A stretch of DNA of 64,000 nt from an uncultured Candidatus Saccharibacteria bacterium (GTDB lineage Bacteria > Patescibacteriota > Dojkabacteria > J137), in contig CAZSKK010000003.1 of the NCBI GenBank assembly GCA_964607415.1, positions 3,693-67,692 of the forward strand, written 5' to 3'. Positions within the stretch are counted from its first letter, which is position 1. Each line of letters opens with the position of its first letter. The position numbers and the translations under genes are program-made. Below the pieces are notes generated by a model. It had not been told where the DNA came from and made no database searches. It was given only the letters and a program-made list of their open reading frames with translations. Below are positions 872 to 22,200 of the stretch, piece after piece.

Positions 872-1087
872 CGTTTGAAGTAAGGCCATTCGATGAAGTA
901 ATAAATAAGTTGGATTCAAGAATGTTAGATCTGGAAGAAAAAGAAACTGAATAGATACTATGTACGCAGAGATTGGCGAGTTTTGATTTCATGCCTGGAG
1001 AAGTGCAAGACTTATTAAGTTTTTGTCAATTAATTCATCTCATACGCTTTACCATCCATAGGCTACTAGCTTATTATTTACAGTTTC

Positions 1088-1116
1088 TTGACAGTTCTCC
1101 TTTTCTGCATTACAAT
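1088..1116 (+). promoter_or_regulatory. Sigma70-like promoter (TTGACA-17-TACAAT) for the first XRE regulator gene
   Basis: TTGACA lies at 1088-1093, followed by a 17-nt spacer and TACAAT at 1111-1116. The ORF-track start at 1088 is the TTG of the -35 box and is spurious. Confidence 0.55.
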
Positions 1117-1147
1117 TCGTAGAATCCCCAACAAAAAGCACCACCAA

Positions 1148-1927
1148 ATGGAGGATCTTAGTTCAAAAACAGGAAAAAAGATTCGTTACTTTCGCGAGCG
1201 GGTAAACGAATCGCAGTTAAATATAGAAACAGCAATAAATGCTTCTCCCGGTACGCTTAGTAGAATTGAAAATGGTCAAACAAATCCTACCAAAGAAACA
1301 CTTCTTAAGATTTCAAGATATTTAAAGTTGAATAGGCTAGAAACAGCTTACCTACTGGGAGATACTGATAAACCAAGTTCAATAGAAGAGATTAATGAAG
1401 TTCGAGATAGATTAAAAGAATACTTTGGGAAAAAAGATGTAGTTGCGTATTTAACTGATGATCGCTATAGACTTGTTGCTGCCTCAAAGGGGATCCAGCA
1501 ACTGATGGACGTATCACCTGAACATTTGAAAAAACTCCTAGGTGAATCTTTAATAAAAATATTAATGGATGATTCTTTAGGTATAAAAAAATTTGTTGCA
1601 GACGACGAGTACAAAACAATTTTAAAAAATCTGATTTATCGATACTACGTTGAGGTTGGGTTTATGATCTGTGACGAAAAAAACCTTGAAACAATAGAAT
1701 TTATTTTGCATAATTCTGAAGCAAAAAAATATTGGGAAGAGTCGCACAAAGATTATCTAGAAAATAAAAGCATTTATACACTTGAATCTAGGAAAGTAAC
1801 TTTCAAATTTGGTTTTTTGACTGTTCCTATGTATTTTACCGTAGAACCTCTAACCTGGAATGAAAGGTTTCAAATGGTAGAGTATATGCCTACGAATTTG
1901 ATTATTCGATTGCTTCAGAAGCTATGA
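1148..1927 (+). CDS. XRE-family HTH transcriptional regulator, paralog A. It has a C-terminal domain of about 170 aa that may be an MmyB-like ligand-binding domain.
   Basis: The HTH_XRE signature is QLNIETAINASPGTLSRIENGQTNPTKETLLKISRYLKL. The start is placed at MEDLSSK, downstream of the promoter. The protein is about 45% identical to the next ORF across its full length. Confidence 0.75.
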   Translation: MEDLSSKTGKKIRYFRERVNESQLNIETAINASPGTLSRIENGQTNPTKETLLKISRYLKLNRLETAYLLGDTDKPSSIEEINEVRDRLKEYFGKKDVVAYLTDDRYRLVAASKGIQQLMDVSPEHLKKLLGESLIKILMDDSLGIKKFVADDEYKTILKNLIYRYYVEVGFMICDEKNLETIEFILHNSEAKKYWEESHKDYLENKSIYTLESRKVTFKFGFLTVPMYFTVEPLTWNERFQMVEYMPTNLIIRLLQKL

Positions 1928-2694
1928 TGAATAAAACCGGAGAAAAAGTAAGATATTTTAGAGAGCGTTTAAAAGAGGCACAACTTGACATAGAACTTGC
2001 TATAAATGCAGCGCCAGGTACACTTAGCAGAATTGAGAATGGGCAAACTAATCCCACTAAGGAAACCCTTCTAAAAATTGTTAAATACTTAAAGCTTAAT
2101 AAGTACGAAACAAGCTATCTACTTGGAGAAACAGATGAACCTGTTAATCAGCTAGAAATTGAAAATGCTCAGAAGAAATTACAAGATTATTTGGATAAAA
2201 AAGGAGTACTTGCCTATGTTAAAGATGACAGAGCAAGACTGATAACACTTTCAAAAGATTTTAAACGCCTAATGAACGTTTCTGAAGACAAAATGCATAA
2301 TATGATTGGAGTTTCTTTAGTAAAAGTGGTCCTTGATGATTCTTTAGGAATAAAAAGATCACTGGATGAAGATGGATATGCAGATCTATTGGAAGGAATG
2401 ATATACAGATACTATTTTGAAGTAGGATTTATGGTAACAGATTATTTTAATATAGCTACGAAAGAGCTCATTTTTAATAGTCCACTTGCTAAAAAATTTT
2501 GGGATCAGGCTGAGGAAAAATATTTAAGTGGAAATGAACTTTATACTTTGGACTCCAGAAAAGTAACTTTTAAATTTGGCTCATTTAAAGTTCCCATGTT
2601 TTATACAGTTGAGCCTGTAATGTGGGACGACCGGTTTCAGATTATTGAGTATACTCCTACAAATTCGATTGTTAGATTACTTCAGAAGCTGTAG
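1924..2694 (+). CDS. XRE-family HTH transcriptional regulator, paralog B. It is a tandem duplicate that overlaps paralog A at ATGATGA.
   Basis: It carries the same HTH (QLDIELAINAAPGTLSRIENGQTNPTKETLLKIVKYLKL). The C-terminal block KVTFKFGxxxVPMxxTVEP..W..RFQ..EY.PTN is conserved with paralog A. Confidence 0.8.
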   Translation: MMNKTGEKVRYFRERLKEAQLDIELAINAAPGTLSRIENGQTNPTKETLLKIVKYLKLNKYETSYLLGETDEPVNQLEIENAQKKLQDYLDKKGVLAYVKDDRARLITLSKDFKRLMNVSEDKMHNMIGVSLVKVVLDDSLGIKRSLDEDGYADLLEGMIYRYYFEVGFMVTDYFNIATKELIFNSPLAKKFWDQAEEKYLSGNELYTLDSRKVTFKFGSFKVPMFYTVEPVMWDDRFQIIEYTPTNSIVRLLQKL

Positions 2695-3424
2695 CTGATT
2701 TGTTTAATTTATACTCCACAACCACAAACCTTGGATCATTTGGAATATTTGTCCATGTATATGTAAATTCAAACTTTTTTACTAACAGATCAAACTCAAC
2801 AATTCTCCTTTCTTCTTCCAGAAGATTAATAGCTTCGTCAGGCAAGCTGTCCCACAATCTTTGAAAATCGGGCTGTTTTTTTAATCTTTCAATTAACTCC
2901 TTCCACCAGCTTTCATCAATCAAATAATCTCTTTCCTGCTTAAGAACAGCAATAACACTTGTTGCCACATTATCAAAATCTTTTATAAACTTTCTAAGAC
3001 CTAAACTGGGATCAAAAACAACTTCTGCAACTTGACTATTATAAATTTTCGAGAGATCCAGCCTTGCAAGTTTCGCTATAATCTTAAATCCATCACTAAT
3101 TTCCAGTATTATAGATTTATTATCCAGAAGGTAAGCAAATACCGTTTTCTTTTTGAAATGCGCCCTCAAAGAATTAATCATATTTTCAACTTCTTCCGGA
3201 GTTGGATCACTATGGTTAACATCTAGAAGATATGCCACTTCTGCTTGCGATAATTTTAAAAAGTTAGCAACTTTTACTATTGTCTCTTTAGTAGGATTTA
3301 CCAGATCATTCTCAATTCTGCTAACACTTCCTGCTGAAAGACCAAGCGCCATTTCAAGGTCGAATTGGCTAATACAATTCTTGTTTCTAAAGAATTTCAT
3401 TTTTTGTCCAAGGGATTTTGACAT
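2672..3424 (-). CDS. XRE-family HTH transcriptional regulator, paralog C. It is convergent with paralog B and overlaps it by 23 nt.
   Basis: The HTH is LEMALGLSAGSVSRIENDLVNPTKETIVKVANFLKL. Its size (250 aa) and C-terminal layout match paralogs A and B. Confidence 0.7.
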   Translation of the reverse strand: MSKSLGQKMKFFRNKNCISQFDLEMALGLSAGSVSRIENDLVNPTKETIVKVANFLKLSQAEVAYLLDVNHSDPTPEEVENMINSLRAHFKKKTVFAYLLDNKSIILEISDGFKIIAKLARLDLSKIYNSQVAEVVFDPSLGLRKFIKDFDNVATSVIAVLKQERDYLIDESWWKELIERLKKQPDFQRLWDSLPDEAINLLEEERRIVEFDLLVKKFEFTYTWTNIPNDPRFVVVEYKLNKSATASEVI

Positions 3425-4728: not shown

Positions 4729-7008
4729 ATGAGTGAATTTTTATATTACATCTACCTTTTTGTTCTAATTTTTGCTTCAGTGCTCGCCTTTTTAGTCATT
4801 TCACATAACTACAAAAAGCTCTATAATCAAATCTTTTTTGGGATGTTAATCACATTGTCCTTATGGATTGTATCACTATATTTTTTACAAAAAGAAAAAC
4901 ATCCCGATGCCTCTTTGATTTTCGGCAGAATGGGCTTTTTGTTACCGGCAGCATTTATCTTGTTATTCTTTATGTTTATTATTGTTTTTCCTAAAAGGTA
5001 TAAGATTCCAAGCAAAATTGAAATTTTTGTGTTTGGAGGAATACTTATGCTTAACTCAGTTTTATCATTATCTCCATGGATCATTGAATCTGTAGAAATT
5101 AGTGAAAGATTGCCAGTTCCTAATTACGGACAATTTTATCCTATTTATGGGATTTCAATTGTTATATCGATTATATATATTTTTTACATATTTATTAGGA
5201 AACTTATACTTACAAGTGGCTACGAAAGATCAATTCTCAAAGTAATAACTTATGGTTTTAGTATTTCAATATTTATTACTGTCGGAACAAACCTCATATT
5301 GGCAAATATTTTAGAAAATAGAATATCTTCAGCACTTGCTCCACTGAATATGATACCTTTACTTTTATTTGTATTGTACGCAATACTAAAATATAGGTTT
5401 CTTGATATTAGGGTAGTAATAAGTAGAGTTATATACTTCATAATAGTCGGAGGATTTGCATATGTTACGTTTTATGGGCTTATATTGTTTTACACGTATG
5501 TAATAGAAGGAATTTTTACACCCACTGCTTTTTTACTGGGCATATTTAACGCAATTGTTTTCACATCAGCATATGATCTTCTAAATAAATACATAAAGAA
5601 AAATATAAATCCAAGAATTGTTAATCCTCAATTCAACCCTGACGAAGAAACTGCAAGCTTCAATAATATGATTAGTCAGATTTTAAATATTGAGGAAATA
5701 CTAAATATCTCTACAGGGTTTCTTCTTAAAGTTTTAGATGTAAAAAATATAGTACTTTACATTATTAGCAGAGATGAGATCTTGATTAGATCTGGCAAAG
5801 AAGATCTTATGCCCAAAGAAACAATCCAGGCAATTTATCAAACTCTTATAAGCACTGACAAAACAGAATTCATTACTGATGAAATTGAACTTTATGAAGA
5901 CAAAGATTTTGGTAAATTTAAAAACGAGATTAAAACTATCTATTCTATAAGTAAAGCAAATAGAGTCAAAATGATTGCAAAGCTTAAATCTCTAAATAAC
6001 CAATCGGGGGCATTTTTCTTAATTGATAAAGATAACGGGATACTAAATACAACTAAAATTAAATTTATCCATGGTATTTTAGACCTTATTTCTCTCTCTC
6101 TCGGAAGAGCATTTTTATATAAGGAAGTCCAAACGTTCAATTCAACTCTTCAACAAAAAATCGATCAGGCAACTCTTGAACTTACCTCCAAAAATCAACA
6201 ACTAGAGGAAGCTTTGCGTAAAGAAAGAGATATGCTTGATATCTTAGGTCATGAACTTAGAACTCCACTTAGTACCTCCCGAAACTCATTAGATATAATT
6301 GATATCTATAAAAAACAAGGAAAACTTGATGAAGCTAAATTAAACCATCATCTAGATATTGCAAAAGAAAATCTTACCCGAGAGATTAAAATACTTGAAA
6401 CAATTCTTTCTTCTTCAAGAATTGACAACAGTAGATTGCAACTTAACTATGAAGAAGTTGATGCCAACGATGTAGTTGAAGATTCAATATCATCATATAA
6501 AGAACAAGCAGAGAAAAAAGGACTCATATTAAAAACCATACTTCCAAACGATAGAGTCTATTGTTATGGTGATAGAGCTGCTACTCAACAAATTATTGAT
6601 AACCTTGTAAGTAACGCCATCAAATATACACAAAAAGGAGCTGTTACAGTTGAACTAAAACTAGAAGCAGAGACCGTTGTATTCACTGTGAGTGATACAG
6701 GAGAGGGAATTCCAGCAGAAGAAATTCCAAACCTAGGTAAAAAGTTTTATAGAATAAATCCATACCTTAAATCAGAAGGGAAAATTGGTGGCAGACAAAT
6801 TGTAAGGCCAGGTGGCACGGGAATTGGTCTATATGTTGTTTTTAAATTAACAGGTATGATGAACGGTACAGTAAATGTGTCTAGTGAGGTAGGAAAGGGT
6901 AGTGCCTTTACTATAAAGCTTCCAAGATTTAACCCTCAAATCCACGAAATTAAAAAGATTGTGGAAGAACAACAACAACCTGTAAAAGCTGAAGCGTTGG
7001 TTGTTTAA
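4729..7008 (+). CDS. Membrane-bound sensor histidine kinase with a multi-TM N-terminal sensor, HisKA and HATPase_c domains
   Basis: About seven hydrophobic helices lie in the first 280 aa. The H-box is LGHELRTPLS. The N/G boxes are NLVSNAIKYT, DTGEGIP and GGTGIGL. No cognate response-regulator gene is adjacent. Confidence 0.85.
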   Translation: MSEFLYYIYLFVLIFASVLAFLVISHNYKKLYNQIFFGMLITLSLWIVSLYFLQKEKHPDASLIFGRMGFLLPAAFILLFFMFIIVFPKRYKIPSKIEIFVFGGILMLNSVLSLSPWIIESVEISERLPVPNYGQFYPIYGISIVISIIYIFYIFIRKLILTSGYERSILKVITYGFSISIFITVGTNLILANILENRISSALAPLNMIPLLLFVLYAILKYRFLDIRVVISRVIYFIIVGGFAYVTFYGLILFYTYVIEGIFTPTAFLLGIFNAIVFTSAYDLLNKYIKKNINPRIVNPQFNPDEETASFNNMISQILNIEEILNISTGFLLKVLDVKNIVLYIISRDEILIRSGKEDLMPKETIQAIYQTLISTDKTEFITDEIELYEDKDFGKFKNEIKTIYSISKANRVKMIAKLKSLNNQSGAFFLIDKDNGILNTTKIKFIHGILDLISLSLGRAFLYKEVQTFNSTLQQKIDQATLELTSKNQQLEEALRKERDMLDILGHELRTPLSTSRNSLDIIDIYKKQGKLDEAKLNHHLDIAKENLTREIKILETILSSSRIDNSRLQLNYEEVDANDVVEDSISSYKEQAEKKGLILKTILPNDRVYCYGDRAATQQIIDNLVSNAIKYTQKGAVTVELKLEAETVVFTVSDTGEGIPAEEIPNLGKKFYRINPYLKSEGKIGGRQIVRPGGTGIGLYVVFKLTGMMNGTVNVSSEVGKGSAFTIKLPRFNPQIHEIKKIVEEQQQPVKAEALVV

Positions 7009-7123
7009 AAAAAGCTTATTATTATTAAAACCTATCCCGATCCTTGATCCTCTCGGATCACCCTCTCCTAAAGGAAAGGAAATGAACGCAGTGAGCAGGG
7101 TGGTGGAAAACTTCTATTTTCTT

Positions 7124-7152
7124 TCAAAATTTGTATTGCAATACAATGCGGC
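7124..7152 (+). promoter_or_regulatory. Conserved upstream element, copy 1 (tcaaaatttgtattgcaatacaatgcggc). It contains the 16-bp perfect palindrome TTGTATTGCAATACAA at 7131-7146, overlapping a TACAAT -10-like hexamer.
   Basis: It matches copies at 14262-14290 and 15748-15776 almost exactly. Each copy sits 75-130 nt upstream of a secreted or envelope protein gene. Confidence 0.6.
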
Positions 7153-7201
7153 GAAAAATTTTTTACGCTATGATCAGTTATTTATTGATCATTTACCTCA
7201 T

Positions 7202-10200
7202 ATGAAGGGCCTTCTCAAAACCACACTAGTTTGGATAAGTATCTATTTAATTCTTTCACCGCTACTCTTAATAAAGCCATCGATAGCTGAAACACTTCAA
7301 AATATTGAAGTTTGCTTCATAGCCTTGGACATCAATAATCAAATTAAACAAAACCTACCTTCAGATACCAATGTGCAAATTGATTTTTATGACAATGTTC
7401 ATTTGCAAGAAAACACAATAAATACCTTATCTGGCAACTTTGCAACAGTTAGTTATACACAAGCATCACCTGCAAATCGAGATTTAATAGGAAATGATGG
7501 AATTTACGATGGCTACTGCGAAACCAGACAGTTTACAGTTGATGCTACAACTGAGTACGCATACACTCAGGCCCGAATATTTTCGCCAAATGATATTTCA
7601 GTTGTTGGATATAATGACCAGTTTGATATACAAGTCCAATCGATAGCAGACGTTTTTACTTATTCTAATGAATTTTTTGATGACATTATTGGAAACGAAT
7701 CAGCAAGAAACATAAACTCGGATGGACATATTATTATGGACGTCAATCGTGAATATAGACATTTAATCACAATTCTTAAAGATAATACACCAATAATCAC
7801 AAACCAACCCCCACAAATCTACCTGAGTTTAAATGGTGAGGCAGAGTATACAAATAATGCAGTTGTACAAACTGACTTGAATATAGCTACAACAAATGTA
7901 ATTCAGAATATCAGGTTTGGACCGAGTGAAGTAAGCATAGCTTCTTTAAACTGGGCCAACTATTCTGATTTTAATGGTGAATATATTTTACCTGGAAGCG
8001 ATTCAACCGGAAATAAAAGGCTTTGTATACAAGTTAAAGATAGTTTAAATCAAGATTCTAATATAGCCTGCGACGAAATAATTTTTGATAATCTACCTCC
8101 AATAGGCAGTATTTTTATAAATAATGATGAAATAGAAACTAGTAATACAAATTTAAACTTGAGCTTAAACGCTATCGATCCAATTTTAGAAGATGATCAA
8201 AATGGAATTGGGGGAATTCAAATGAGATTTTCTGAAGACAATTCGAATTGGTCAGTATGGGAACCTTACTTAGCAACAAAAACTTTCCAAACAACGACTA
8301 ATAATGGACAAGCTTTCGTATTTGTTCAATTTCAAGATTCTTTAGGGAATGTTTCAATATCCTATAGTGATAACATCTTAGTAGATCCAAATTCAACTAT
8401 TGGAACATTAAGAATAAATAATGATGACGCATACACAAATACTAGTTTAGTAAATCTAACTCTTAATAAAATTGGTAATCGAACTCCTTTGTATGTAAGA
8501 TTTATTCAAACTTCTAACGGTCAAGTTCCTTCTAACCCTCCCAATGTTTACAATCCAACTGATAATTTAGGTGGTTGGACATATTGGCAAAACTATTCTG
8601 AAAATAAACAGTGGGATCATGATCATCCCGAAGCAGGAACTGGTACAGATGGATATGGTAAAAAAAGTATTTATGCTCAGTACATGTGGAGCGATAATAC
8701 TGTTACAGAAATTTTTCGAGATAGCATTATCTATGCACCTTACTATGCAATAGAGTATAGGAGTGTAGATCATTCTGAACTTATAACTGAGCCTCAAAAT
8801 TCTACTCCTGATTTCAGTTACGAACCATTTTTTCCGGAATACACTCTGAATAATATCCCAACAAGCTTAAATACTCAGGAAGAAGTTATTATTAAATTAA
8901 ATACAAAAAATAACGGAACTTTTTCTTGGCAGCCAAATATTGTAAATATAACAAATTTTTGGGAGGTAATAAATATTGCCCCAGAATTTCAGTCCTTAGT
9001 TCAATCTTCAACCAGAGGCAACAATGCAACACCTGCGAGTATAATTAACTATAACCAGGAAACTGGAACTTTGAGCTTAACAGTTAAAGCCCCAAGTTAT
9101 CCTGGAACTTACAAGTTAAAACTAGATGCAATTCACGAAGGTGTAGCTCAATTTTCACAGTTTAATAATCCTTCGCCTGGTTTTGAAATAACCGTAACCA
9201 CGAATCCTAATACTCCACAACCTGGAAGTGACGAAGAACCTGATACAGATTTTACCGGCTACTATCCCTCCAATCCATACTCTGGTCAGTTGCATGTAAT
9301 TACTGGTTATGTCAGGTACGCGCCGCCTAACCAATATAATGCACCCTACATGATTGTAGAAGCTGATGGTAGTAGTGCTTATTGGTATATAAATCAGTAT
9401 GATATTGGTCAGTATCTAAATCAAGTGATAAGTGTACCAATTGTAATAGACAATCCTAGCATATTATCTTATTACGTAATCGGCTGGGACGCCATTCCGA
9501 TAAGTTACCCATCTAGTCTTACGTTAAGACCAGGGGATACCATCCCAATTGAAATAAGATATCAAAATGCCGGATACCATATATGGCCGATAGGTACAAC
9601 CAGGCTTGGAGTAACACAATCTGCCAACGGAACGTCTCTTTTTTACGATGGTAGTTGGTTAAGCGATGGAAGAATAAACATGGCTAATAATAATCAGGTT
9701 CGATATGGTGATGTGGCAAGTTTTAGATTTAATATTCATGCTCCAACTAATATCGCAGTTGGGTCCTATAGACAGTGTTTTGAACCATTAGTTGAGATGG
9801 TTACATGGATCGGAGGAAGTGGGAGAGATGTTTGTATAAATATTACAGTTACAAATCAGCCAACTCCTCCAGTAAACAATATTCCGCCAATTTCACCAAC
9901 ACCATCTGGCGATACTGGCTATGTTGTAAGGTACGCGTGCCTAGATGTTCTAGCAGGGCCTCAAGCGGGATTTCCTGTTGTTGTTCATATTAATTACGGT
10001 GATGCAGTTACAGTAATTGGGGAGGCTACGGTTGGAGCAACTGATTGGCTACAAATTAGAACTGGTAGTGGTGTTGAAGGCTGGGTTCCAAGAAGTTCAA
10101 TTGATCATGTAAATGATCCTGCTAATATTTCATTTAATCTTAATAATACTTATATTGCGTCTTATGTTTGTGGAAGTTCGTTAACAGTTTATAGTGGTCC

Positions 10201-13200
10201 TGGAGCTGAGTATGGAGTTAAGCAAATTCTTCCACAATGGACATCTACATATATATTAACAAGTTATAATGGTTGGCAGTTAATTACAATGCCTAATAAT
10301 ACAACTGGTTGGGTAAACTCACGTAGTCAACTTTGTGCAGGCAGCCCACAAGTTTTAGGTTATAGTACTAATAACGGTAACTACTCAGGACAAACAATTT
10401 ACAATGGCGAATTGATATCAAGACCTCTAAATCAAGGTAGCTATATAGTAACTCAGTATTTTAACAGTAGACACAACGGTGTTGACTACGCAGCAAGTTG
10501 TGGAACTCCCGTTTTTTCAATTGCAGAAGGAATTGTGATGATTGCACAAAGTGGATTTTCAAATACGTACAATCCTAATTTAACTGGAGCTGCAAGAATT
10601 GAAGCAATGAACAGAGTCAATTACGTTATGATTGCACATAAAAACGGGATAATGAGTATTTACGCACATCTGCAGGATGTAAATGTGACTTTAGGCCAGC
10701 ATGTCCAAATGGGTCAGAAAATTGGAACGGTTGGGAATACGGGATGGAGCACTGGTTGCCATCTTCATTTTAGTACAAGAACTCCAAGTGGAGCATATTT
10801 GGATCCAGAATCTATTCTTAGTCAGCAGGTAAATGTAGATCAACTAAGAGCATTTAATTCTGTAAGAAGCAGAGAAAATAACTCTACAAGTTATCTTGCA
10901 GTTAATAATCCAAATGGAGTCACTCATCAATATTGTGGAGCATGGATTAAAGATTATGAATACTTTCTCGAACCAGGTGAAACTTGGAGAACATATACAA
11001 ATTTGATTTACAATCCTTCAATTAACAAATCTTTAAGATTAAGAGGTGATATCAGGCTTGCGTATTGGAATAAATATGGTGGGACTTGTGGCAATTTAGG
11101 ATTGCCAACAACAGACGATCTTTGGGCCGCACAATACATATCTAATGGAACAACTACAACTGGTGCTTATCAAAAGTTTGATAAAGGAACCATTCATAGT
11201 AGCGGGCATGGAACATATGCAACAACTGGAACATTAGATTATATTCATACAAGTGGTGGTGGAACTGGAAGATACGGATTTCCTTTAGGTGAAATGTATA
11301 ACACAACTGAACGAGGCATGTGCCAGCAGTTCGAAAGTGGTTTGCTTTGCGAAAGGGATGCACCAGATAATAGATCTGATGCAGAAAAGGCAATTGACGC
11401 AAGAGCTAAAGCATTAGGAAGTACAGGACCAAGTGCACTAATCAATATTTGCGGATATCCGGCAAAAACATATTCCAATGTGATTACAGGTGAGGATGGT
11501 GCGATTGTATATGTAAACGGGAAAGCTACATATAGTTATGGTGGAACGTACGATACATTCGATTACTTTAGCGATAGATGTACAAGATTTGGCATTTGGA
11601 CAAATGATCCAGCGGTTGGAGGAAAAGGTCCATATAATACTCCAGGTGCATATCAGGACTATCAAAACGGAAGGATTTATTGGAGCTGGAAACATGTTGG
11701 AAAGTTTGTTTTTGGAACAATTAAAAATAGGTTTGAAACAGCCGGTGGTACAAATTCACAATACGGCTGGCCAACCAGTGAGGTTTATTCGGTAAATGAA
11801 AACGATGTACAAACAAATTGTCAGAATTTTGAAGGGAGTGGAGTATATAGAAGAATTTGCGAAAGCACAGTTCCAGAGGATACTCCAGCACAAAAAGCAT
11901 TTTATCAGCTTACAGGAATTCGCTTTAGTCCAAGCCAAATTAGGATGGAGTGTGGTAGAGAAACAGTAAATTTGGCTAATGGCGTTGCTATTTATGATTC
12001 AAACCGAAATCTTGCCAGATCTATAACTGGAAATATTTTTACGGCTTACAATTCTAATGGTGGGTGTACTACTTTTGGAATACCTGAGAATAATACTGAT
12101 AGTGTTTGGGGTGCTGGAAATGTGACAGGCTTTGCCCAGCGATTTATAAGATCTGGTAGCCCTCAAGTTATTAACGATTTTTATGAATATAATAACAATG
12201 TAACAATATTGGAAGGCACACCTAGAAATATTTTTGAATTACATAATGGTTTAGGAACTAATGGTTTTCCGGTTAGATACTTTATTGATAGTTCCCTTGA
12301 AGATAGAGGCGTTTGTGTTCAAACAACTACAAGTGGAAATATTTGCGAAAGGCCAATTCCAGAATGGAGTGTTTTGTTAAGAAGTAGGGTAGAAGGTGAA
12401 AATCAAACTTACGATCTTTCACAAATTTCGAGCATTTGTAGTAACAATGATTACAAAATCCATCCTTTAAGTAATGGCATTATTTACTACGATCCGATTT
12501 ATCACAATACAAGAATAATTAGATCAAATATTTTTATTTACTGGAATAGGGCAGACAAAGGTTGTGCTGTGTTAGGATTACCAGAAAACGATACTAGCTT
12601 TCCAATTAGTCCACAAGGAACACCTGGGGAAGCGCAAAGATTTTATAGAGATGAAAAGATTTTTGATATTTACTGGTCACAGTTTGGTACAATCGAATTG
12701 GAAGGTGCTGCAAGGAATTTGTATAACAATAATGGTGGATTATGGAACAATGGCTTTCCGAAGAATGTATTTGAAGACAGTGTAAGAGGTGTCTGTGTTG
12801 AAACGGAAGATAGCACTATATGCCAAAATGAAGCTGCTGATCCCGGCACCTGTGCAGAAGGCCAAACCTGGGATCCTGTGAGTGCACAATGTTTAGAAAA
12901 TAAAGAGTATGAATGTAGACAGCTTCAAATGCATAAATTCACAAGCTCTCAAAATCAAGTGGTATGTGCTAAAACTCTTAACATTTCCTACTTCAATCAG
13001 TACCTAAAGGACGATGGTACCTATAGCGAACCTAGCGATGGGAATAAAATGTGTGGAGCTGCAAGCATAGTAATGATTTCATCTTATTTAGGCAAACTTC
13101 CTATTAAAGATAAAAGTACAAGGATCAAAGATTATATGTATAAAGATGAGGGTCAAGGAATTATTAATGGTACGCAATTAGCTTCAATAACAAATCCTTA

Positions 13201-13630
13201 TACTGGTCAGCCTATTAATATATGTCATGATGGTGCATTTGGTCTTACAGGAGCATTTGTAAGTTGTTCAGAAAGTTCCAAAGAGGGCATGGAAGCTTAT
13301 ATCAAACTAATTGGATTAAAAAAAGATAGTGAAATATGGCATAACCCATATGATTTTGATCCTTCTTGGAATTTTGTAAAAAATTCGATTGATAATGGAC
13401 ATCCAGTTATAATAACTTATGGTTGGAAAGATAAATTATTTGGCCATATTACAGTCATAAAAGGTTATACAAGTGATATCGATGGTAAAAAATTTGTAAT
13501 GAACGATAGCTTTACAGATACAAGTGTTCATGGTGTAGAAAACGGTTATAACTTAGATGGGAATAATGCTCTATATTCTCTTTGGGAAAAAGGATGGGAG
13601 CCAGGATACCTAATCTCAGTCAGCAAATAA
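7202..13630 (+). CDS. Giant secreted cell-wall-active protein (about 2142 aa). It contains a signal peptide, a long Ig/beta-rich region, an SH3b domain, an M23 (LytM) metallopeptidase, about five LGFP repeats and a C-terminal papain-like C39-type cysteine peptidase.
   Basis: The signal-anchor is MKGLLKTTLVWISIYLILSPLLLIKPSIA. The SH3b-like block is GYVVRYACLDVLAGPQ...GWVPRSSIDHV. The M23 motifs are HNGVDYAA...GTPVFSIAEG and GNTGWSTGCHLHF. The LGFP-type repeats include YGGTCGNLGLPTTD, YGFPLGEMY, YGWPTSEVY, FGIPENNTD and LGLPENDTS. The C-terminal block is MCGAASIVMISSYLG...GHITVIKGY. The true start is probably the ATG at 7202, or possibly 7082. The ORF-track TTG start at 7001 and the frame through 7082 translate the conserved upstream motif. 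Confidence 0.8.
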   Translation: MKGLLKTTLVWISIYLILSPLLLIKPSIAETLQNIEVCFIALDINNQIKQNLPSDTNVQIDFYDNVHLQENTINTLSGNFATVSYTQASPANRDLIGNDGIYDGYCETRQFTVDATTEYAYTQARIFSPNDISVVGYNDQFDIQVQSIADVFTYSNEFFDDIIGNESARNINSDGHIIMDVNREYRHLITILKDNTPIITNQPPQIYLSLNGEAEYTNNAVVQTDLNIATTNVIQNIRFGPSEVSIASLNWANYSDFNGEYILPGSDSTGNKRLCIQVKDSLNQDSNIACDEIIFDNLPPIGSIFINNDEIETSNTNLNLSLNAIDPILEDDQNGIGGIQMRFSEDNSNWSVWEPYLATKTFQTTTNNGQAFVFVQFQDSLGNVSISYSDNILVDPNSTIGTLRINNDDAYTNTSLVNLTLNKIGNRTPLYVRFIQTSNGQVPSNPPNVYNPTDNLGGWTYWQNYSENKQWDHDHPEAGTGTDGYGKKSIYAQYMWSDNTVTEIFRDSIIYAPYYAIEYRSVDHSELITEPQNSTPDFSYEPFFPEYTLNNIPTSLNTQEEVIIKLNTKNNGTFSWQPNIVNITNFWEVINIAPEFQSLVQSSTRGNNATPASIINYNQETGTLSLTVKAPSYPGTYKLKLDAIHEGVAQFSQFNNPSPGFEITVTTNPNTPQPGSDEEPDTDFTGYYPSNPYSGQLHVITGYVRYAPPNQYNAPYMIVEADGSSAYWYINQYDIGQYLNQVISVPIVIDNPSILSYYVIGWDAIPISYPSSLTLRPGDTIPIEIRYQNAGYHIWPIGTTRLGVTQSANGTSLFYDGSWLSDGRINMANNNQVRYGDVASFRFNIHAPTNIAVGSYRQCFEPLVEMVTWIGGSGRDVCINITVTNQPTPPVNNIPPISPTPSGDTGYVVRYACLDVLAGPQAGFPVVVHINYGDAVTVIGEATVGATDWLQIRTGSGVEGWVPRSSIDHVNDPANISFNLNNTYIASYVCGSSLTVYSGPGAEYGVKQILPQWTSTYILTSYNGWQLITMPNNTTGWVNSRSQLCAGSPQVLGYSTNNGNYSGQTIYNGELISRPLNQGSYIVTQYFNSRHNGVDYAASCGTPVFSIAEGIVMIAQSGFSNTYNPNLTGAARIEAMNRVNYVMIAHKNGIMSIYAHLQDVNVTLGQHVQMGQKIGTVGNTGWSTGCHLHFSTRTPSGAYLDPESILSQQVNVDQLRAFNSVRSRENNSTSYLAVNNPNGVTHQYCGAWIKDYEYFLEPGETWRTYTNLIYNPSINKSLRLRGDIRLAYWNKYGGTCGNLGLPTTDDLWAAQYISNGTTTTGAYQKFDKGTIHSSGHGTYATTGTLDYIHTSGGGTGRYGFPLGEMYNTTERGMCQQFESGLLCERDAPDNRSDAEKAIDARAKALGSTGPSALINICGYPAKTYSNVITGEDGAIVYVNGKATYSYGGTYDTFDYFSDRCTRFGIWTNDPAVGGKGPYNTPGAYQDYQNGRIYWSWKHVGKFVFGTIKNRFETAGGTNSQYGWPTSEVYSVNENDVQTNCQNFEGSGVYRRICESTVPEDTPAQKAFYQLTGIRFSPSQIRMECGRETVNLANGVAIYDSNRNLARSITGNIFTAYNSNGGCTTFGIPENNTDSVWGAGNVTGFAQRFIRSGSPQVINDFYEYNNNVTILEGTPRNIFELHNGLGTNGFPVRYFIDSSLEDRGVCVQTTTSGNICERPIPEWSVLLRSRVEGENQTYDLSQISSICSNNDYKIHPLSNGIIYYDPIYHNTRIIRSNIFIYWNRADKGCAVLGLPENDTSFPISPQGTPGEAQRFYRDEKIFDIYWSQFGTIELEGAARNLYNNNGGLWNNGFPKNVFEDSVRGVCVETEDSTICQNEAADPGTCAEGQTWDPVSAQCLENKEYECRQLQMHKFTSSQNQVVCAKTLNISYFNQYLKDDGTYSEPSDGNKMCGAASIVMISSYLGKLPIKDKSTRIKDYMYKDEGQGIINGTQLASITNPYTGQPINICHDGAFGLTGAFVSCSESSKEGMEAYIKLIGLKKDSEIWHNPYDFDPSWNFVKNSIDNGHPVIITYGWKDKLFGHITVIKGYTSDIDGKKFVMNDSFTDTSVHGVENGYNLDGNNALYSLWEKGWEPGYLISVSK

Positions 13631-13649: not shown

Positions 13650-14240
13650 ATGAAACTTAATAAAAAAAATAAAATATTTCTTGTGCTTGGATTATTTCTA
13701 ACATTAGTAACTATATCAGTTCTGATATTTATATTTACTAATTCCCAATACAGGAAACATAAATTCGTCTTTAATAAAAATACATATCAAATATCATACA
13801 AAAAAGATTTAAAATTCGAAGCAAAGGATAATGAATTCTTGAGATTAGAAACATTAGATAGTTACTCATTCAACATAATTGAAAAGACACTCCCTCCTGA
13901 TAGTAATAAACAAGACATATTAAACTACCTTATAACTGTACAAGGATACTATGAAATACCTTTTGATGATAAAAATTATGAATACATTTTTAGTATTGAA
14001 GGAATCGACGTTTATATGTACAAAGACTTTAAGCAAACTTCTGATGAAGATAAATACTATGATTTCAGGCTATTTTTCAGATCGGGTAACAATTTAAGTA
14101 ATATATACATAGATTATAATAATTTATTTTTTACTCAAATCCTAGTCCAATTACCTAAAGCATTAACATCTAATGAAGTTTCAAAGGAAAGCGTAAATGA
14201 ATTGAAAGAAGCGTTTAAAAGTATAAAAAATGCTGAGTAA
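13650..14240 (+). CDS. Hypothetical membrane-anchored protein (196 aa)
   Basis: It has an N-terminal TM helix (IFLVLGLFLTLVTISVLIFIF). It lies immediately downstream of the giant protein on the same strand. There is no recognisable domain. Confidence 0.5.
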   Translation: MKLNKKNKIFLVLGLFLTLVTISVLIFIFTNSQYRKHKFVFNKNTYQISYKKDLKFEAKDNEFLRLETLDSYSFNIIEKTLPPDSNKQDILNYLITVQGYYEIPFDDKNYEYIFSIEGIDVYMYKDFKQTSDEDKYYDFRLFFRSGNNLSNIYIDYNNLFFTQILVQLPKALTSNEVSKESVNELKEAFKSIKNAE

Positions 14241-14261: not shown

Positions 14262-14290
14262 TCAAAATTTGTATTGCAATATAATGCGGC
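14262..14290 (+). promoter_or_regulatory. Conserved upstream element, copy 2. Its palindrome has one mismatch (TTGTATTGCAATATAA), which creates a perfect TATAAT. Similarity to copy 3 extends to about 14335.
   Basis: The sequence is tcaaaatttgtattgcaatataatgcggccacaaagtaattttggtagacttactcaaatacttt. It is about 85% identical to copy 3 over roughly 70 nt. Confidence 0.6.
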
Positions 14291-14394
14291 CACAAAGTAA
14301 TTTTGGTAGACTTACTCAAATACTTTATAGCAATTGTGAGTTAAGCGCTAAAGCTAAAGCATTTATATTATTACATACGACTTATCAACTCTAT

Positions 14395-15672
14395 ATGAAA
14401 AAGCTATTTAACAAAATATTCTCAAAAGGACGAAAAAGAAAAAATTTCATTATTGCTATCCTACTAGTTACTATCTCAATAACAGCTTTAGGTTTGATCA
14501 CTTATAAAAAGGAAGTAATGGTTTACCATAAACTCGAAGGTTTTGCTGAAATGGAAAATTATTATGTGTTTGGATTTAAATTTAAATCAGAGAATAAGTT
14601 ACTTACGCCTAGCGAGGAAATAACAATATTAGATACGAATATTTTCTATAAAGGTAGTATATTAAGTCCAACCGATATTCCAGGGTTTCCTTACGTAGGC
14701 ATTTCAGAGACAAAATTAGATTTTTTCGAAACTAAAGTTAAAGATAGCTCAATTTTATTTTTGCCTCATCAAATTGACTCTCCATGCCCTAATGCTTATG
14801 TGGAAACTTTCCGTTATATAGTTTGCCAAACAGATGAGTACACTAAAATTTTTTCTATTTCTTCTCTCAAAAGCAAACCCATTACTAACCAAATTATTAG
14901 TGTGCACGGCAGAAGCCGTATAATGGATTATGTAATAACAGAATCCAAAGAATATTTTTTTATTCAGAACATAACAAAAAATGAAATCTGCCTTTTTCAA
15001 ACCAAAAAACAAGAAGAAGCTTATAGTAGTTGTACTGATGCAGAAGCTGAAATAGTGCCTAATAATGGTTCATCAGAATTGTACGTGTTTGATGTTAAGT
15101 ATTTTAACATTGAAGCTAAACAGGCGATTTTGTTAGGAGGCATACGTATTCGTGGGCTTTCTGATCTTTTTTTTGTAGACCTTAATTTAGATAGAGTTAT
15201 TAAATTCCCCGCGTTCTCAAATAATCTATGGTACGACAGATACTACATAGAATCTAATAATATTTTTGTGATTGCAGCAGATACTAATATTAGATATAAG
15301 TTGGTAAATAATAGTGAGTATGAAATGCAAAGTGATGAATTTGGCGCAGGTATAACTCTATATTGGAGTAATATTGCTACTAAAGCTTTAGTAGACAATA
15401 AGATAATCAATTTATATACTAATAGCACCTTACTAGATCTAAATAAATTTAAATGCAACGCAACTAGTCTAGGAGGCTTTGGCTCAAATAGAAACACTAT
15501 TATTGCAATCAGCTTTAATAATCAATGTAAATTTCACACAATGCTATTAGATCCTCACAAAAATTTCATAAAAAAGCTTGACATTGATACTACGGAAGAT
15601 AGATATAAATTTGTAAAACTGATAACCTTGAAAGATATCGGGTTTTTAAAACAAGAAAACTTCTATATGTAG
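14395..15672 (+). CDS. Hypothetical signal-anchored extracytoplasmic protein (about 425 aa)
   Basis: The start is placed at MKKLFNKIF...FIIAILLVTISITALGLI, which is an N-terminal TM helix. The ORF-track start at 14269 translates the upstream regulatory motif. There is no recognisable domain. Confidence 0.55.
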   Translation: MKKLFNKIFSKGRKRKNFIIAILLVTISITALGLITYKKEVMVYHKLEGFAEMENYYVFGFKFKSENKLLTPSEEITILDTNIFYKGSILSPTDIPGFPYVGISETKLDFFETKVKDSSILFLPHQIDSPCPNAYVETFRYIVCQTDEYTKIFSISSLKSKPITNQIISVHGRSRIMDYVITESKEYFFIQNITKNEICLFQTKKQEEAYSSCTDAEAEIVPNNGSSELYVFDVKYFNIEAKQAILLGGIRIRGLSDLFFVDLNLDRVIKFPAFSNNLWYDRYYIESNNIFVIAADTNIRYKLVNNSEYEMQSDEFGAGITLYWSNIATKALVDNKIINLYTNSTLLDLNKFKCNATSLGGFGSNRNTIIAISFNNQCKFHTMLLDPHKNFIKKLDIDTTEDRYKFVKLITLKDIGFLKQENFYM

Positions 15673-15903: not shown

Positions 15904-16665
15904 ATGTCAAGAATACTACATTTGTTTCTTCAGCTTTCTTTGAAAGCTAAAGTTCTTATCTTATTTGCATCAAGCGCTTCTGTTGCTGTAACTGGAACTG
16001 GTGCCTACTTCGTAGCACAAAGTTTAACTACAAATAACGAACACGAGCAAGTTATTACAGAGGAAGTTAACACTAACGAAGCTTTAGACGTTCCATCTTA
16101 TCCTGTAGCTATTGAAGATAACAAAACTGAAGAAGTTGTTGCCGAAGTACCAGTAGAGCAACCTGCTACACAGCCAACATATATTCCTCCAATTCAACAA
16201 CAACCAACTCCAACCCCACAGCCTGCGCCTACACCAGAACCTGAACCTCCAACTGGTGAAGAACCAGAATCAATATTTGGAGGAACTTTTACTAGCAGTA
16301 ACTATCAATTCTCATTTTCTTATATGCCAAGCATGGGTACTGCCTCAAGTACATACGATCCCAATGCGATGACTAAACCAGAAACTATCACTTTTAGTTC
16401 TAGAGCTGGATCAGTATCCGTAAATCCCATGCCTTTTGGAATTGAAACGCCTCCTCCAATTGAAGAATATTCACTTAACGCTGCATCAGGACAAACATTT
16501 AACGTTAGAATTAACAATCGAAATGGAATAATATTCTATGAAGCAAGCTATGGTATATGGGATCAAGGCTCTGTTACAATAGTCCTTTCTGGATACCCTT
16601 CAGTAGAATATGCAAAAGCAGAAGCTAATTATATTATAACCAGCATGAATATAGGAGCAATTTAA
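15904..16665 (+). CDS. Secreted Pro/Thr-rich protein (253 aa)
   Basis: It has an N-terminal signal-anchor (LILFASSASVAVTGTGAYFVA). A low-complexity PTPTPQPAPTPEPEPP linker is followed by a globular C-terminal domain. Confidence 0.6.
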   Translation: MSRILHLFLQLSLKAKVLILFASSASVAVTGTGAYFVAQSLTTNNEHEQVITEEVNTNEALDVPSYPVAIEDNKTEEVVAEVPVEQPATQPTYIPPIQQQPTPTPQPAPTPEPEPPTGEEPESIFGGTFTSSNYQFSFSYMPSMGTASSTYDPNAMTKPETITFSSRAGSVSVNPMPFGIETPPPIEEYSLNAASGQTFNVRINNRNGIIFYEASYGIWDQGSVTIVLSGYPSVEYAKAEANYIITSMNIGAI

Positions 16666-19289: not shown

Positions 19290-22200
19290 TTAATTTGAGC
19301 TACAAACATATTTAGAATCAGGTGTTCCGTCAGAAACCCCATCATCATTAGTATCATTTACAATTTTACTATATTCCCTAAATACTAACTGACAGTAATC
19401 TCCAACTTCTCCACCATACTCCCAAATACAATCGCCATATAGAGAATGTCTTCCATAATAAGGTGCAGAAGCTATGTGCAAAGCACTAATCTTATAGTTA
19501 GGATTGAACAATCTTTCTCGTAGATTAATAATTGACTGCGTACCCGGATATTCATCCAACAAATCTTCCAATTGTTCGATAGTAATATCATAAAATCCAT
19601 TTTCGCCAGTCGCATCGTAAACTCTTTGCGTCCACTGTTCTTCAGTAAATACTTCCCCCTTTGGAATACCCAAATAATTTCTGCCATCTCTAGCAAGTTT
19701 AGTTCCACCTGCACACAAAGCGACTCCCAAAATTACTGCATCATCATGACTTAGGTCTTCCACAGTATTAAATGGTAACCCTAGTCCTTTAACACAGTAT
19801 AGAATTAAGTCGGCATCTGTTCTCATAATTCCGTCCCAACCTATTTGAGTAAATTGCATTGGACCTCTAGTTCCATATCCATTATCAGTCACATAGCTAA
19901 CATATGTCGGATCACCAGGTCTTTTATCTGCTTCTCCACGACTTTCTACATCTAAAATAGCTCGAATAACGTTACCAGTGATTCCAGGATAGTCTCTGCC
20001 TATTAAATCAGCAACTTCATCCAAAAGACATTGAATACTTGAAAAATTTTTATCCCCATCAACAATTGGATTACCATTTTCGTCGTATTTACATTCAGAA
20101 TTCAATTTAGCAGAAATAGTACTTGTCTGGGTTGTATCTTGGCTTGTCTTTTTACCATCAGTTACTGTTGTCCATTCAGGAGCTTCGCAAGCCTTGTCAT
20201 AACGACATGAATTAGTACTTCCACAGCCCAAAACATCTCCATACAAAACATACGGATTAATCTTTTGTCCATTGTAGGATGCATTAGTATGCAAGTGGGT
20301 TCCTTGGATACAAGGTGTCCACAAACCGTTAGGAACCTCATAAAGCCTAATAGTGTTTCCGTTAGCAGTCATAAATTTACCAGGCTTATCATAAGTAGTA
20401 ACATAATCAGACATAATCGAAGATGTTATTCTTAAGTGTAAAAATACATACTTAACACCACTCTTGCCTTGATAAATTATGTACCCTCCATTTGATCTCA
20501 TACCTAAGAGCTCTTCATCACTCATATTATCAATGATCTCAACTAAAGCAGCTCCATTAGATAGCTTTGAATTTAATTCCTTTAGTTGGCCCCTTATTGT
20601 TTCCGGTTTTGTACCAAGATTAGGACAAAAGTTGTTTTGACCTGCAACAATTTGTACAATTTCGCCAGCTTCAGGAGCATATAGATCACTATTGCCTCTT
20701 ACAGCACCTTTTGTATAAAGATCAAACGATAGTGAAGGCCTTGGATCTTGAGTTGTACTACAATAGTGTGTAAATCCACCTAAAGGCCCTTGATAACAAG
20801 CATCATTTTGGAGAGGACATGATGTTGCTCCAAAATCTAGCTTAGTTACATCACCATTAATTTGTTCTTCTGGTGGAACTTTGCATGAGTTGTCGCACAA
20901 TCCTTCTATTGTATAACCTTTACTGCATAAAAATTCACCCAGTTCATCTTTAAATCTATTATCCGACATATCTGTAATGCACGTTAACTCATCGTCAGGC
21001 TTTATCAAAGCTTCCGGGTTTAAAGCAAGGTCTGCCGAACTTGAAGCACCAACATTTCCTTGTGCCCCCAAAACAACATCACTTCTAACAAAACAACTAT
21101 TCCCAAAATTATCAAAGTCTTGATATCCCAAACCAGTTGCACCTTGCATATCGCAGCCTAAAGCTTTTGTAAATGATGCTATATTATTTTTATATTGACC
21201 TTCTTCGACTTCCATGTGCAAGTGAGGACCTTGTATTCCAATACATCCACCTTGGTTAGGATCTGTAACATCTAGATCTGAAAGCTTTGAAACTCTGGTA
21301 ATCTTTTGACCTGCTTTATAGGTATTGCCCTCCTGAACACTGTCATCAACCAGAACATGTAAGAACATCAGTTTTACTGTCTTACCATCAATCTTGCCTT
21401 GATAAAATATTCTTCCTCCAGCTTTTGTTCCATTATTACAATAGTTAAACTCATCTGCATTTTGAACTTCTACAATCTCACCATCAAAAGGAGCGATAAC
21501 GTTTTGATCTCCGCCATTGTAATTTGTATTAAATAAATCTACTGCATTTAATCCTTCATGCGATTCAACTCCAGGCCCTTTACCACAAAGTCCTGCTTCT
21601 ACAGGACAATAATACTGTGTGCTTGGTTGGTTTGACGAATCGGTGGTAGAATTTTGTACAGGATTTTCGTCAAATTTCCATTGCTCAACCTGATCACAAG
21701 TTACCACAGGAAAGCTTGTAGTAACACTTGCAAGCCCTGTTTCCAATACCTTTCTTCTTGTATTATTTGCTGCATTATTTTTACCATAGTTTGGATTATC
21801 AGTAAGTTTTTCTGCGCTAAAGGTAGAATCTTTTGTATAAGCAACGCTCATTTCTTGTAGTACATCTAGATATCCCAGCCAATCATAATATTGATATTCT
21901 GTTCTAGTTGGATTGGTTTTTGCTAGTAAAAACTCGTTGTTATAGATGTTGCTTGGAAGTTCGCAGGAATCTAAGTCTTGTGCATATTGATTTGGAATTA
22001 CATCTGGCAAGCCTCTATCATTTGATTCGGACAATGGCCTATTTGCATCTCGAACTTTTGAAGTTACCTCTGTTTTCCATGCAAGGTTTTCCCTAAAAAC
22101 CATCTTTAAACCTCTTTCACTCATTTGTGTTTGAAGCCTTTGGTACATTCTATACAAAGAATCATAGACTCCCGGAATATCATAATTTGGATTATTAGGC

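Follow-up and report, generated by a model that had tools for sequence, protein, structure and literature searches.

Is a secreted protein of more than two thousand residues, in which two peptidases are joined to a long series of wall-binding modules, part of the wall metabolism of the cell that makes it, or is it directed at the wall of a neighbour? The question is raised by a gene on the forward strand of a 64,000-nucleotide stretch (hereafter the window) of contig CAZSKK010000003.1 (assembly GCA_964607415.1, positions 3,693 to 67,692), which comes from an uncultured Candidatus Saccharibacteria bacterium assigned by GTDB to the Dojkabacteria. The molecular means by which ultra-small Candidate Phyla Radiation bacteria (CPR, or Patescibacteria) attach to hosts, feed on them or kill them are largely unknown, and a secreted two-peptidase protein with many wall-binding modules is a candidate effector of the CPR–host interaction. 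With modest confidence, the gene appears to encode a Sec-exported modular lysin that is associated non-covalently with the cell wall. It represents a rare and oversized form of the usual modular cell-wall hydrolase, not a new kind of system.

Gene integrity and predicted export

A single open frame runs without interruption from 7001 to 13630 on the forward strand (2209 codons), in a window of 34% G+C. The ATG at 7202 yields a product of 2142 residues (gene 7202-13630) whose N-terminus reads MKGLLKTTLVWISIYLILSPLLLIKPSIA followed by ETL, whereas longer calls of the same protein exist in databases (2182 residues at NCBI and 2209 residues in Logan). Sequence comparison supports the start at 7202 over these two calls, since the signal peptides of two metagenomic relatives, P0117 and P0010, fall at the aligned position and the sole strongly hydrophobic N-terminal segment is found there. 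Both of these are classical signal peptides (MKKINLVLKS…SVLA followed by ATVDQ in P0117 and MRKSHYW…VQA followed by QETL in P0010). All 6429 bases of the gene recur with 100% identity on a contig that Logan assembled independently from SRR7051043 and that is present in 16 samples; the identity of the two assemblies indicates that the gene is not an assembly artefact, so that the intact 2142-residue open reading frame (ORF) of the initial annotation stands. Judging from the predicted signal peptide, the protein would be exported via Sec, and neither a lipobox cysteine nor an LPXTG motif is present in the 2142-residue sequence.

Two SH3b domains and an M23 peptidase with a complete active site

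All four families anticipated by the initial annotation (Peptidase_M23, SH3_3, LGFP and Peptidase_C39_2) were found above the curated Pfam thresholds. Peptidase_M23 covers residues 1090-1202 with 86.4 bits (cutoff 28.7) over profile positions 2-96 of 96, and 37 M23 chains of the PDB match the domain at E ≤ 1e-3. Complete HxxxD and HxH zinc ligands together with a catalytic histidine separate active M23 peptidases from degenerate LytM-type factors such as EnvC and NlpD. The corresponding residues are HNGVD (H1091, D1095), YAHL (H1156) and HLHF (H1187, H1189), and all of them align with those of the active enzymes zoocin A and 9gy1. Since both zinc and catalytic residues are aligned with active enzymes, the domain is not a degenerate LytM-type factor, which had been an objection foreseen against the HxxxD/HxH motifs; it is a predicted metalloendopeptidase with intact active-site residues.

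Ahead of it, the SH3-like block noticed earlier was resolved into two stretches that match SH3_3 (PF08239) with 42.3 bits in the whole protein and 49.3 bits when the segment is taken alone (cutoff 27). The SH3_4 and GW profiles match this segment too.

LGFP super-repeats and a cysteine-rich connector

The M23 domain is followed by four super-repeats of about 160 residues. Each comprises two LGFP-type modules, of which the second is closed by conserved cysteines, giving about eight modules in total; the units emerge from self-comparison (E 1e-6 to 1e-11) and from their alignment with one another. The Pfam LGFP model (PF08310), which describes tandem repeats of ~54 residues with an LGxP motif, scores 35.4 bits on the whole protein against a cutoff of 22, with 26.7 bits in unit 2 and 21.8 bits in unit 1, and units 3 and 4, which the model does not recognise, are tied to units 1 and 2 by internal similarity. 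The protein contains five [LYF]G[LFWI]P motifs, in agreement with the at least five LGFP-type repeats counted at the outset. The super-repeats are 51% identical to those of P0117, and residues 1481-1545 match endolysin PHROG 2998 (the C-terminal part of an endolysin family).

The region also matches the solved LGFP domain of PS1 (mycoloyltransferase A) of C. glutamicum (6swz, 6sx4; E 2e-6), and the two proteins have the same repeat type. A passage of PMC3314691 cites the proposal that the LGFP repeats of PS1 anchor that protein to the cell wall. Unlike PS1, the window protein carries its repeats as four double-LGFP super-repeats with conserved cysteines, joined to peptidases and not to an esterase. 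The SH3b and LGFP modules would be wall-binding elements, the LGFP part by analogy with PS1 and with the endolysin literature.

Between the last super-repeat and the C-terminal domain lies a connector with six cysteines (1865, 1874, 1884, 1897, 1905 and 1922), conserved in the closest relatives. It gives a weak, sub-threshold match to CBM_14 and is modelled with a predicted local distance difference test (pLDDT) above 95.

The C-terminal domain and its papain-like fold

The C-terminal domain matches Peptidase_C39_2 at residues 1926-2103 with 32.6 bits against a cutoff of 24, over profile positions 1-142 of 143. In an alignment of 40 sequences of the domain, Q1933 (YFNQ), C1951 (MCGAAS), H2082 (GHITVIKGY) and D2102 (ND) are invariant and correspond to the oxyanion-hole Gln, nucleophilic Cys, general-base His and Asp/Asn of papain-like peptidases, and the papain-like Cys/His pair proposed in the initial annotation, C1951 and H2082, is therefore retained in all 40 relatives. 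Further invariant columns hold an asparagine and the cysteines C2008 and C2022, which possibly form a disulfide pair. No match was obtained when the domain was compared with PDB sequences by phmmer. AlphaFold2 with the 40-sequence alignment gave a model of pLDDT 93.9 and predicted TM-score (pTM) 0.91, compared with a pLDDT of 34 in a single-sequence run. All 11 Foldseek matches of this model in the PDB at E ≤ 1e-3 are papain-like (clan-CA) cysteine peptidases (TM-scores 0.35-0.52), among them Alr0975 (C83), interpain and streptopain (C10), IdeS/Mac-1 and UfSP; staphopain lies just above E 1e-3 and the C39 domain of PCAT1 is found lower in the list. The family profile matches the C1 peptidase dionain-1 (E 1.8e-5) as well as interpain A, the Cys and His of the domain falling on the catalytic residues of both, and the sequence around the nucleophile, CGAAS, can be aligned with that of the PCAT peptidase domain. 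Among viral structures the neighbours include the 'lysozyme' of a cyanophage and the 'peptidoglycan-binding protein' of a Synechococcus phage, together with an endolysin from a Gordonia phage and a C39 protein from a Bacillus phage. The model thus assigns a papain-like peptidase fold with high confidence, and a non-peptidase fold, envisaged earlier as the way in which the assignment might fail, finds no support.

The domain resembles canonical C39 peptidases (PCAT1, ComA; MEROPS C39) in its papain-like fold, its Cys/His site and the CGAAS motif. It differs from them in that it is matched by PF13529 (C39_2) and not by the C39 family itself, is C-terminal in a Sec-type protein, has no double-glycine leader nearby and is not fused to an ABC transporter. 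No ABC-transporter family was found in the protein or among the window ORFs scanned against Pfam (several ORFs were left out of that scan). A canonical C39 peptidase of the bacteriocin-processing type is excluded by the C-terminal position and by the absence of an ABC transporter domain.

The N-terminal region, a proposed stalk

According to the initial annotation, the first 1000 residues or so contained no assignable domain. This holds for Pfam, which matches nothing in the N-terminal ~900 residues, and for PDB sequences, which phmmer does not link to the N-terminal 873 residues; it does not hold for homology, since a shared domain and three repeats of a type known from giant surface proteins were recognised. 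The shared domain (residues 30-195) matches four segments of P0003 (E 3e-33). It is followed by three tandem repeats with the consensus INGGAxYT…MRFSxDGxxWSxWExY…DGxKxVYVxxxDxAGNxS. The same repeat, of about 95 residues, occurs in 8 copies in P0002, 9 in P0004 and 5 in P0005 (the last from a Thermoplasmatota archaeon), all three of them giant surface proteins in which it stands alongside FG-GAP, FN3, cadherin-like and Big_13 domains; it was also found in P0010 and P0060. A profile of this repeat family gave only insignificant immunoglobulin (Ig)-like matches among PDB sequences and the repeat matches PHROG 10898 (function unknown) weakly. Two further modules, A and B, complete the region, and module A, like module B, has no match in Pfam or among PDB sequences.

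Relatives of the domain and of the architecture

When 1.84 billion cluster representatives were searched exhaustively with phmmer, no more than 96 relatives (clusters) of the C-terminal domain appeared, and PF13529 is matched by 54 of the 55 best (best 1e-21). The domain lies at most 40 residues from the C-terminus in 74/95 relatives. At least 1000 residues are reached by 23/95, and in 18 of these 23 the domain is found at the extreme C-terminus. Several relatives measure about 2400-2600 residues (P0022, P0031, P0035, P0039, P0042, P0051, P0092), and two metagenomic contigs, L088 (2119-9588) and L089 (570-8033), encode proteins of 2487-2489 residues that end in a domain of the same C39_2 subfamily, which suggests that these giants represent a conserved protein format. 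At the other extreme, 19 relatives are short, with a Met start and a hydrophobic N-terminus, which suggests that the domain may work as a free-standing secreted enzyme, and many relatives are proteins of ~280 residues with little beyond the domain. The families that co-occur among the 55 closest relatives are mostly Ig-like, lectin or carbohydrate-binding modules (CBM), with Big_13 in 11/55, followed by Ricin_B, CBM96 and FlgD_ig.

M23 is rare in this company (2/55, P0010 and P0011), as is LGFP (4/55). P0011 (MBN1915537.1, from Candidatus Dojkabacteria, a partial sequence annotated as 'peptidoglycan DD-metalloendopeptidase family protein') has the same M23 – LGFP – C39_2 order as the window protein. 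P0010 is arranged as repeats – SH3 – M23 – DUF5648 – LGFP – C39_2, and differs from the window protein by its shorter length and the inserted DUF5648. P0117, encoded on a 467-kb JGI contig, has the N-terminal domain, the LGFP super-repeats and C39_2 in common with the window protein but lacks M23, and its gene has different flanking genes. A pattern scan of 185,579 species-representative genomes with the giant protein revealed no relative. By these comparisons the M23–LGFP–C39_2 architecture is a small, recurrent and rare family.

Two catalytic domains and wall-binding modules in one chain are the normal design of Gram-positive autolysins and endolysins. The initial annotation had called such a combination unusual, which was overstated for lysins in general, and what is rare is the exact combination and its size: the long repeat stalk in a format of 2142 residues, the conserved cysteines in super-repeats of the double-LGFP kind, and M23 paired with a rare PF13529 subfamily otherwise found at the end of giant surface proteins. 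Mycobacteriophage LysA proteins likewise carry peptidase domain(s) and wall-binding repeats in one chain (Payne and Hatfull, 2012, PMC3314691). Unlike LysA, the window protein is chromosomal, predicted to be Sec-secreted, 4-5 times larger and extended by an N-terminal repeat stalk of ~860 residues; it is without an amidase or glycosidase domain, has eight LGFP-type modules with extra cysteines, and combines M23 with a C39-like domain in the same chain.

The substrate of the cysteine peptidase

In the proposed mechanism, cleavage of the signal peptide would leave ~860 residues of beta-rich repeat modules as an extended stalk or adhesin-like arm, and the two SH3b and about eight LGFP-type modules would bind cell-wall polymers and hold the enzyme on the sacculus. 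The M23 zinc metalloendopeptidase would cut peptide cross-links of peptidoglycan, and the papain-like PF13529 domain (Gln/Cys/His/Asp) would cut a second peptide bond, the likeliest target being a stem peptide or cross-bridge and a less likely one a wall-associated protein. What has been shown is the ORF, its domains, the intact catalytic residues, the predicted fold and how rare the family is and where it occurs; export, attachment to the wall, the activity of the two peptidases and the cell that they act on are inferred.

Peptidase_C39_2 is listed as an enzymatically active lysin domain, and LGFP as a wall-binding one, in phages of Gram-positive bacteria (PMC8223927), and the module set of mycobacteriophage LysA proteins includes M23, a C39-like cysteine protease (N5) and LGFP (PMC3314691). 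The putative link between PF13529 and peptidoglycan comes from these endolysin catalogues and from the fusion context. Several observations weigh against it. No biochemical substrate was found in the literature for any PF13529 protein; the nearest solved folds cleave proteins or peptides (Alr0975, interpain, SpeB, IdeS, staphopain) and are not the NlpC/P60 or CHAP wall peptidases, at modest TM-scores; and the C39_2 subfamily was not found in PHROGs, nor in IMG/VR contigs when the domain and an 8-sequence alignment were used as queries. The earlier statement that one polypeptide carries two peptidoglycan-peptidase chemistries is thus borne out for the two intact peptidase domains and not for the activity of C39_2 on peptidoglycan.

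The same observations bear on an alternative in which PF13529 is a protease of proteins, acting in self-maturation, by cutting the giant precursor into functional pieces, or in degradation of surface proteins of a target cell, and M23 is the sole wall-cleaving activity. Its fold neighbours, from streptopain, interpain, IdeS and staphopain to UfSP and the C39 domain of PCAT1, and the lack of a substrate in the literature are compatible with this possibility, and so is the position of the domain at the extreme end of most large relatives. Giant secreted repeat proteins of Omnitrophota, uncultivated bacteria with a predatory or episymbiotic habit, have terminal C39 or C39-like domains which have been implicated in cell-surface polymer processing and proposed as propeptide cleavers (bioRxiv 10.1101/2023.11.21.568195). 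By their description, to which the comparison is confined, these giants resemble the window protein in being long, secreted and repeat-rich with a terminal C39-like peptidase, and differ from it in being 10-40 times longer, with many transmembrane segments, other catalytic sets and no mention of M23 (bioRxiv 10.1101/2023.11.21.568195). Against a protease of proteins stand the many relatives of ~280 residues that are barely more than the domain, the place of the family among the catalytic domains catalogued for endolysins (PMC8223927, PMC3314691) and the direct fusion of the domain to about eight wall-binding modules. This alternative is regarded as doubtful, but it deserves serious attention. 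The protein would give a first handle on the substrate of Peptidase_C39_2.

Own wall or foreign wall

For a lysin of this kind, the wall of a neighbouring cell (host, prey or competitor) is a more likely target than the producer's own. A foreign wall is favoured by the large size of the protein for a small-genome organism, by its wall-binding modules of actinobacterial type, by the origin of its closest architectural relative in Dojkabacteria, a CPR lineage, and also by the stalk and the lectin- and Ig-rich relatives. Two points weigh on the other side: the window holds no feature by which the producer's wall could be distinguished as target from that of another cell, and a histidine kinase gene directly upstream also fits a regulated housekeeping autolysin.

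Such an autolysin would be kept on the wall of its own cell by its SH3b and LGFP modules and, governed by the adjacent two-component sensor, would remodel or split that wall as the cell grows and divides. Enzymes with M23 and SH3b are classic division and elongation hydrolases, and the NCBIfam matches of the window protein are to ShyA, ShyC, MepM and DipM, those to the first three lying in their M23 portions. A Mur ligase gene in the window indicates that the organism makes peptidoglycan. The gene of the kinase, which has an N-terminal seven-transmembrane (7TM) sensor, lies on the same strand and ends 194 bp upstream of the lysin gene, the interval containing no terminator-like site, and a response regulator gene lies nearby. 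On the other hand, a protein of 2142 residues, about 860 of them in a repeat stalk, greatly exceeds the known housekeeping hydrolases in size and is a high cost to a reduced genome; the relatives of the C-terminal domain are mostly giant repeat-rich surface proteins with lectin, CBM and Ig modules; and synteny is not kept at the homologous locus L083. An autolysin is therefore considered unlikely, if by no means negligible, and it would make the protein, for all its size, a conventional representative of a familiar class of enzymes.

A lysin aimed at other cells would accord with the epibiotic lifestyle put forward in the initial annotation, which is plausible because the closest relative of the same architecture comes from Candidatus Dojkabacteria. 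A more far-reaching proposal is that the protein is the most complete member of a set of CPR-associated giant 'wall-breaching' enzymes, in which a PF13529 warhead is carried on stalks, the LGFP and SH3b modules recognise an actinobacterial-type host and the peptidases open the host sacculus locally. This proposal is speculative and rather improbable as a whole; if true, it would involve the protein in attachment, feeding or lysis by a Dojkabacteria-like episymbiont and provide a concrete effector for the CPR–host interaction. It would also parallel the attack of lytic Saccharibacteria on the actinobacterial genus Gordonia (Batinovic et al., 2021, as cited in a passage of PMC13293708).

Genomic context and the toxin and phage readings

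The genes around the lysin gene include a DsbD-like gene, gltX, a clpC-like gene, rmuC, lepA, prfB, mnmA, ssb, tgt, iPGM and the Mur ligase gene, and many window ORFs have no family match. The coordinates of the protein's features and of the neighbouring genes of interest are collected in Table 1.

Table 1. Features of the giant protein and genes discussed in the text (window coordinates, or locus coordinates where a locus is named)
Feature	Residues	Position	Strand	Basis or remark
Signal peptide	1-29	7202..7288	+	n-, h- and c-regions; predicted cleavage after SIA
N-terminal domain	30-195	7289..7786	+	37% identity to P0117 N-terminus
Three tandem repeats, ~95-115 aa	201-298, 296-400, 397-513	7802..8740	+	internal similarity
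Module A	520-690	8759..9271	+	homologous to P0010 residues 401-536, E 5e-10
Module B	700-890	9299..9871	+	no Pfam match, PDB match or homologue found
Pro/Thr-rich linker, after module B	886-908			read from translation
Two SH3b domains	~910-970, ~985-1045	9929..10336	+	Pfam SH3_3
Peptidase_M23 domain	~1075-1210	10424..10831	+	Pfam PF01551
Four super-repeats, ~160 aa	1235-1400, 1401-1572, 1573-1722, 1723-1864	10904..12793	+	self-similarity
Cys-rich connector	1865-1925	12794..12976	+	modelled as a small beta subdomain ahead of the peptidase
Peptidase_C39_2 domain	1926-2142	12977..13627	+	Pfam (PF13529, clan CA)
Three XRE-family (HTH_3) regulator genes		1088-3424		one with MmyB-like ligand-binding domain
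Histidine kinase, N-terminal 7TM sensor (HisKA_7TM)		4729-7008	+	upstream of giant gene
Receiver-only response regulator, 156 aa		18312-18782	+	between two giant genes
Downstream small membrane protein, window		13650-14240	+
Downstream small membrane protein, L083		14558-15172
Downstream small membrane protein, L087		1701-2303
Downstream small membrane protein, L088		9593-10336
Downstream small membrane protein, L089		8053-8799

Immediately downstream of the gene that ends in C39_2, in 5/5 loci, lies a gene for a protein of 196-248 residues with a single N-terminal membrane helix. This arrangement raises another explanation, that of a polymorphic-toxin or bacteriocin-like effector in which the C39-like domain is an exchangeable warhead and the downstream gene encodes the immunity protein. 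PMC3482391 describes a family of Tox-PL-C39 toxin domains with Imm-SuFu proteins for immunity, and the prevailing C-terminal position of the domain on varied N-terminal scaffolds would suit such a warhead. The downstream proteins, however, show no similarity to one another (z ≤ 2.2, the same as controls) except for the closely related pair from L088 and L089, and those of the window and L083 have no Pfam family match. A conserved downstream partner or immunity gene was accordingly rejected: position and topology recur in 5/5 loci, and the sequences are unrelated beyond the one pair. The protein itself has no RHS, filamentous-haemagglutinin or PT-domain modules and none of the trafficking modules of type V, VI or VII secretion systems, and a target outside cells rather than within them is suggested by the invariant cysteines C2008 and C2022 (possibly a disulfide), by the predicted export through Sec and by the modules for wall binding. 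With trafficking modules absent and downstream ORFs not conserved between loci, Tox-PL-C39 was set aside as an assignment, and a toxin of this type is very unlikely.

Even less probable, and unlikely in the extreme, is an origin of the gene in a phage or prophage, as a tail lysin or endolysin left behind in the chromosome. In its favour, the M23 region matches endolysin and tape-measure families of PHROGs, the LGFP region matches an endolysin PHROG as mentioned, and P0006, a TP901-family tape measure protein, has an M23 domain in common with the window protein. Against it, the gene lies among chromosomal housekeeping genes and regulators, and phage genes for structure or lysis are absent from this company; the protein has a signal peptide predicted for Sec, IMG/VR yielded no relatives of the C-terminal domain with the queries named above, and the G+C content of the gene is 36% against 34% in the window. 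A phage endolysin or tail lysin location was rejected on the grounds of these neighbours and of the missing IMG/VR relatives.

Other observations in the window

The three XRE-family genes lie upstream of an ORF of 376 residues of unknown function, which is followed by the histidine kinase gene. The kinase and the response regulator may be tied to the giant genes by regulation. Promoter and terminator scans gave no more sites than shuffled sequence, and Rfam detected only a tRNA-Cys in the window and the 5' region.

A second giant ORF of 1979 residues (19293-25229, reverse strand) is located 5.7 kb downstream of the lysin gene and begins with an N-terminal hydrophobic segment. It shows a sub-threshold Peptidase_M23 match (21.6 bits), a second M23-like segment and a weak GDSL-lipase match; HLH is kept at residues 1336-1338 and 1645-1647, and the first His of HxxxD is not canonical. 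Comparison of this ORF with the lysin gene gave no sign of paralogy. A two-component system is thus flanked by genes for two giant proteins, both putatively active on walls. The ORFs at 14269-15672 and 15904-16665 (both on the forward strand) also start with hydrophobic segments.

The LepA protein of the window is at most 50% identical to that of any matched species representative, and the best match is a Saccharibacteria metagenome-assembled genome. A CPR bacterium resembling Dojkabacteria is the best guess for the producer, to judge from the origin of P0011 and from the G+C content of 34%. Finally, an ORF of 299 residues (35748-36647, forward strand), with its Helicase_C, UvrB and UVR motifs, covers no more than the C-terminal half of UvrB. 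The other half does not lie upstream; a PCMT gene in the opposite orientation ends there, 240 bp ahead of the ORF, and 35748-36647 may represent a truncated or split uvrB.

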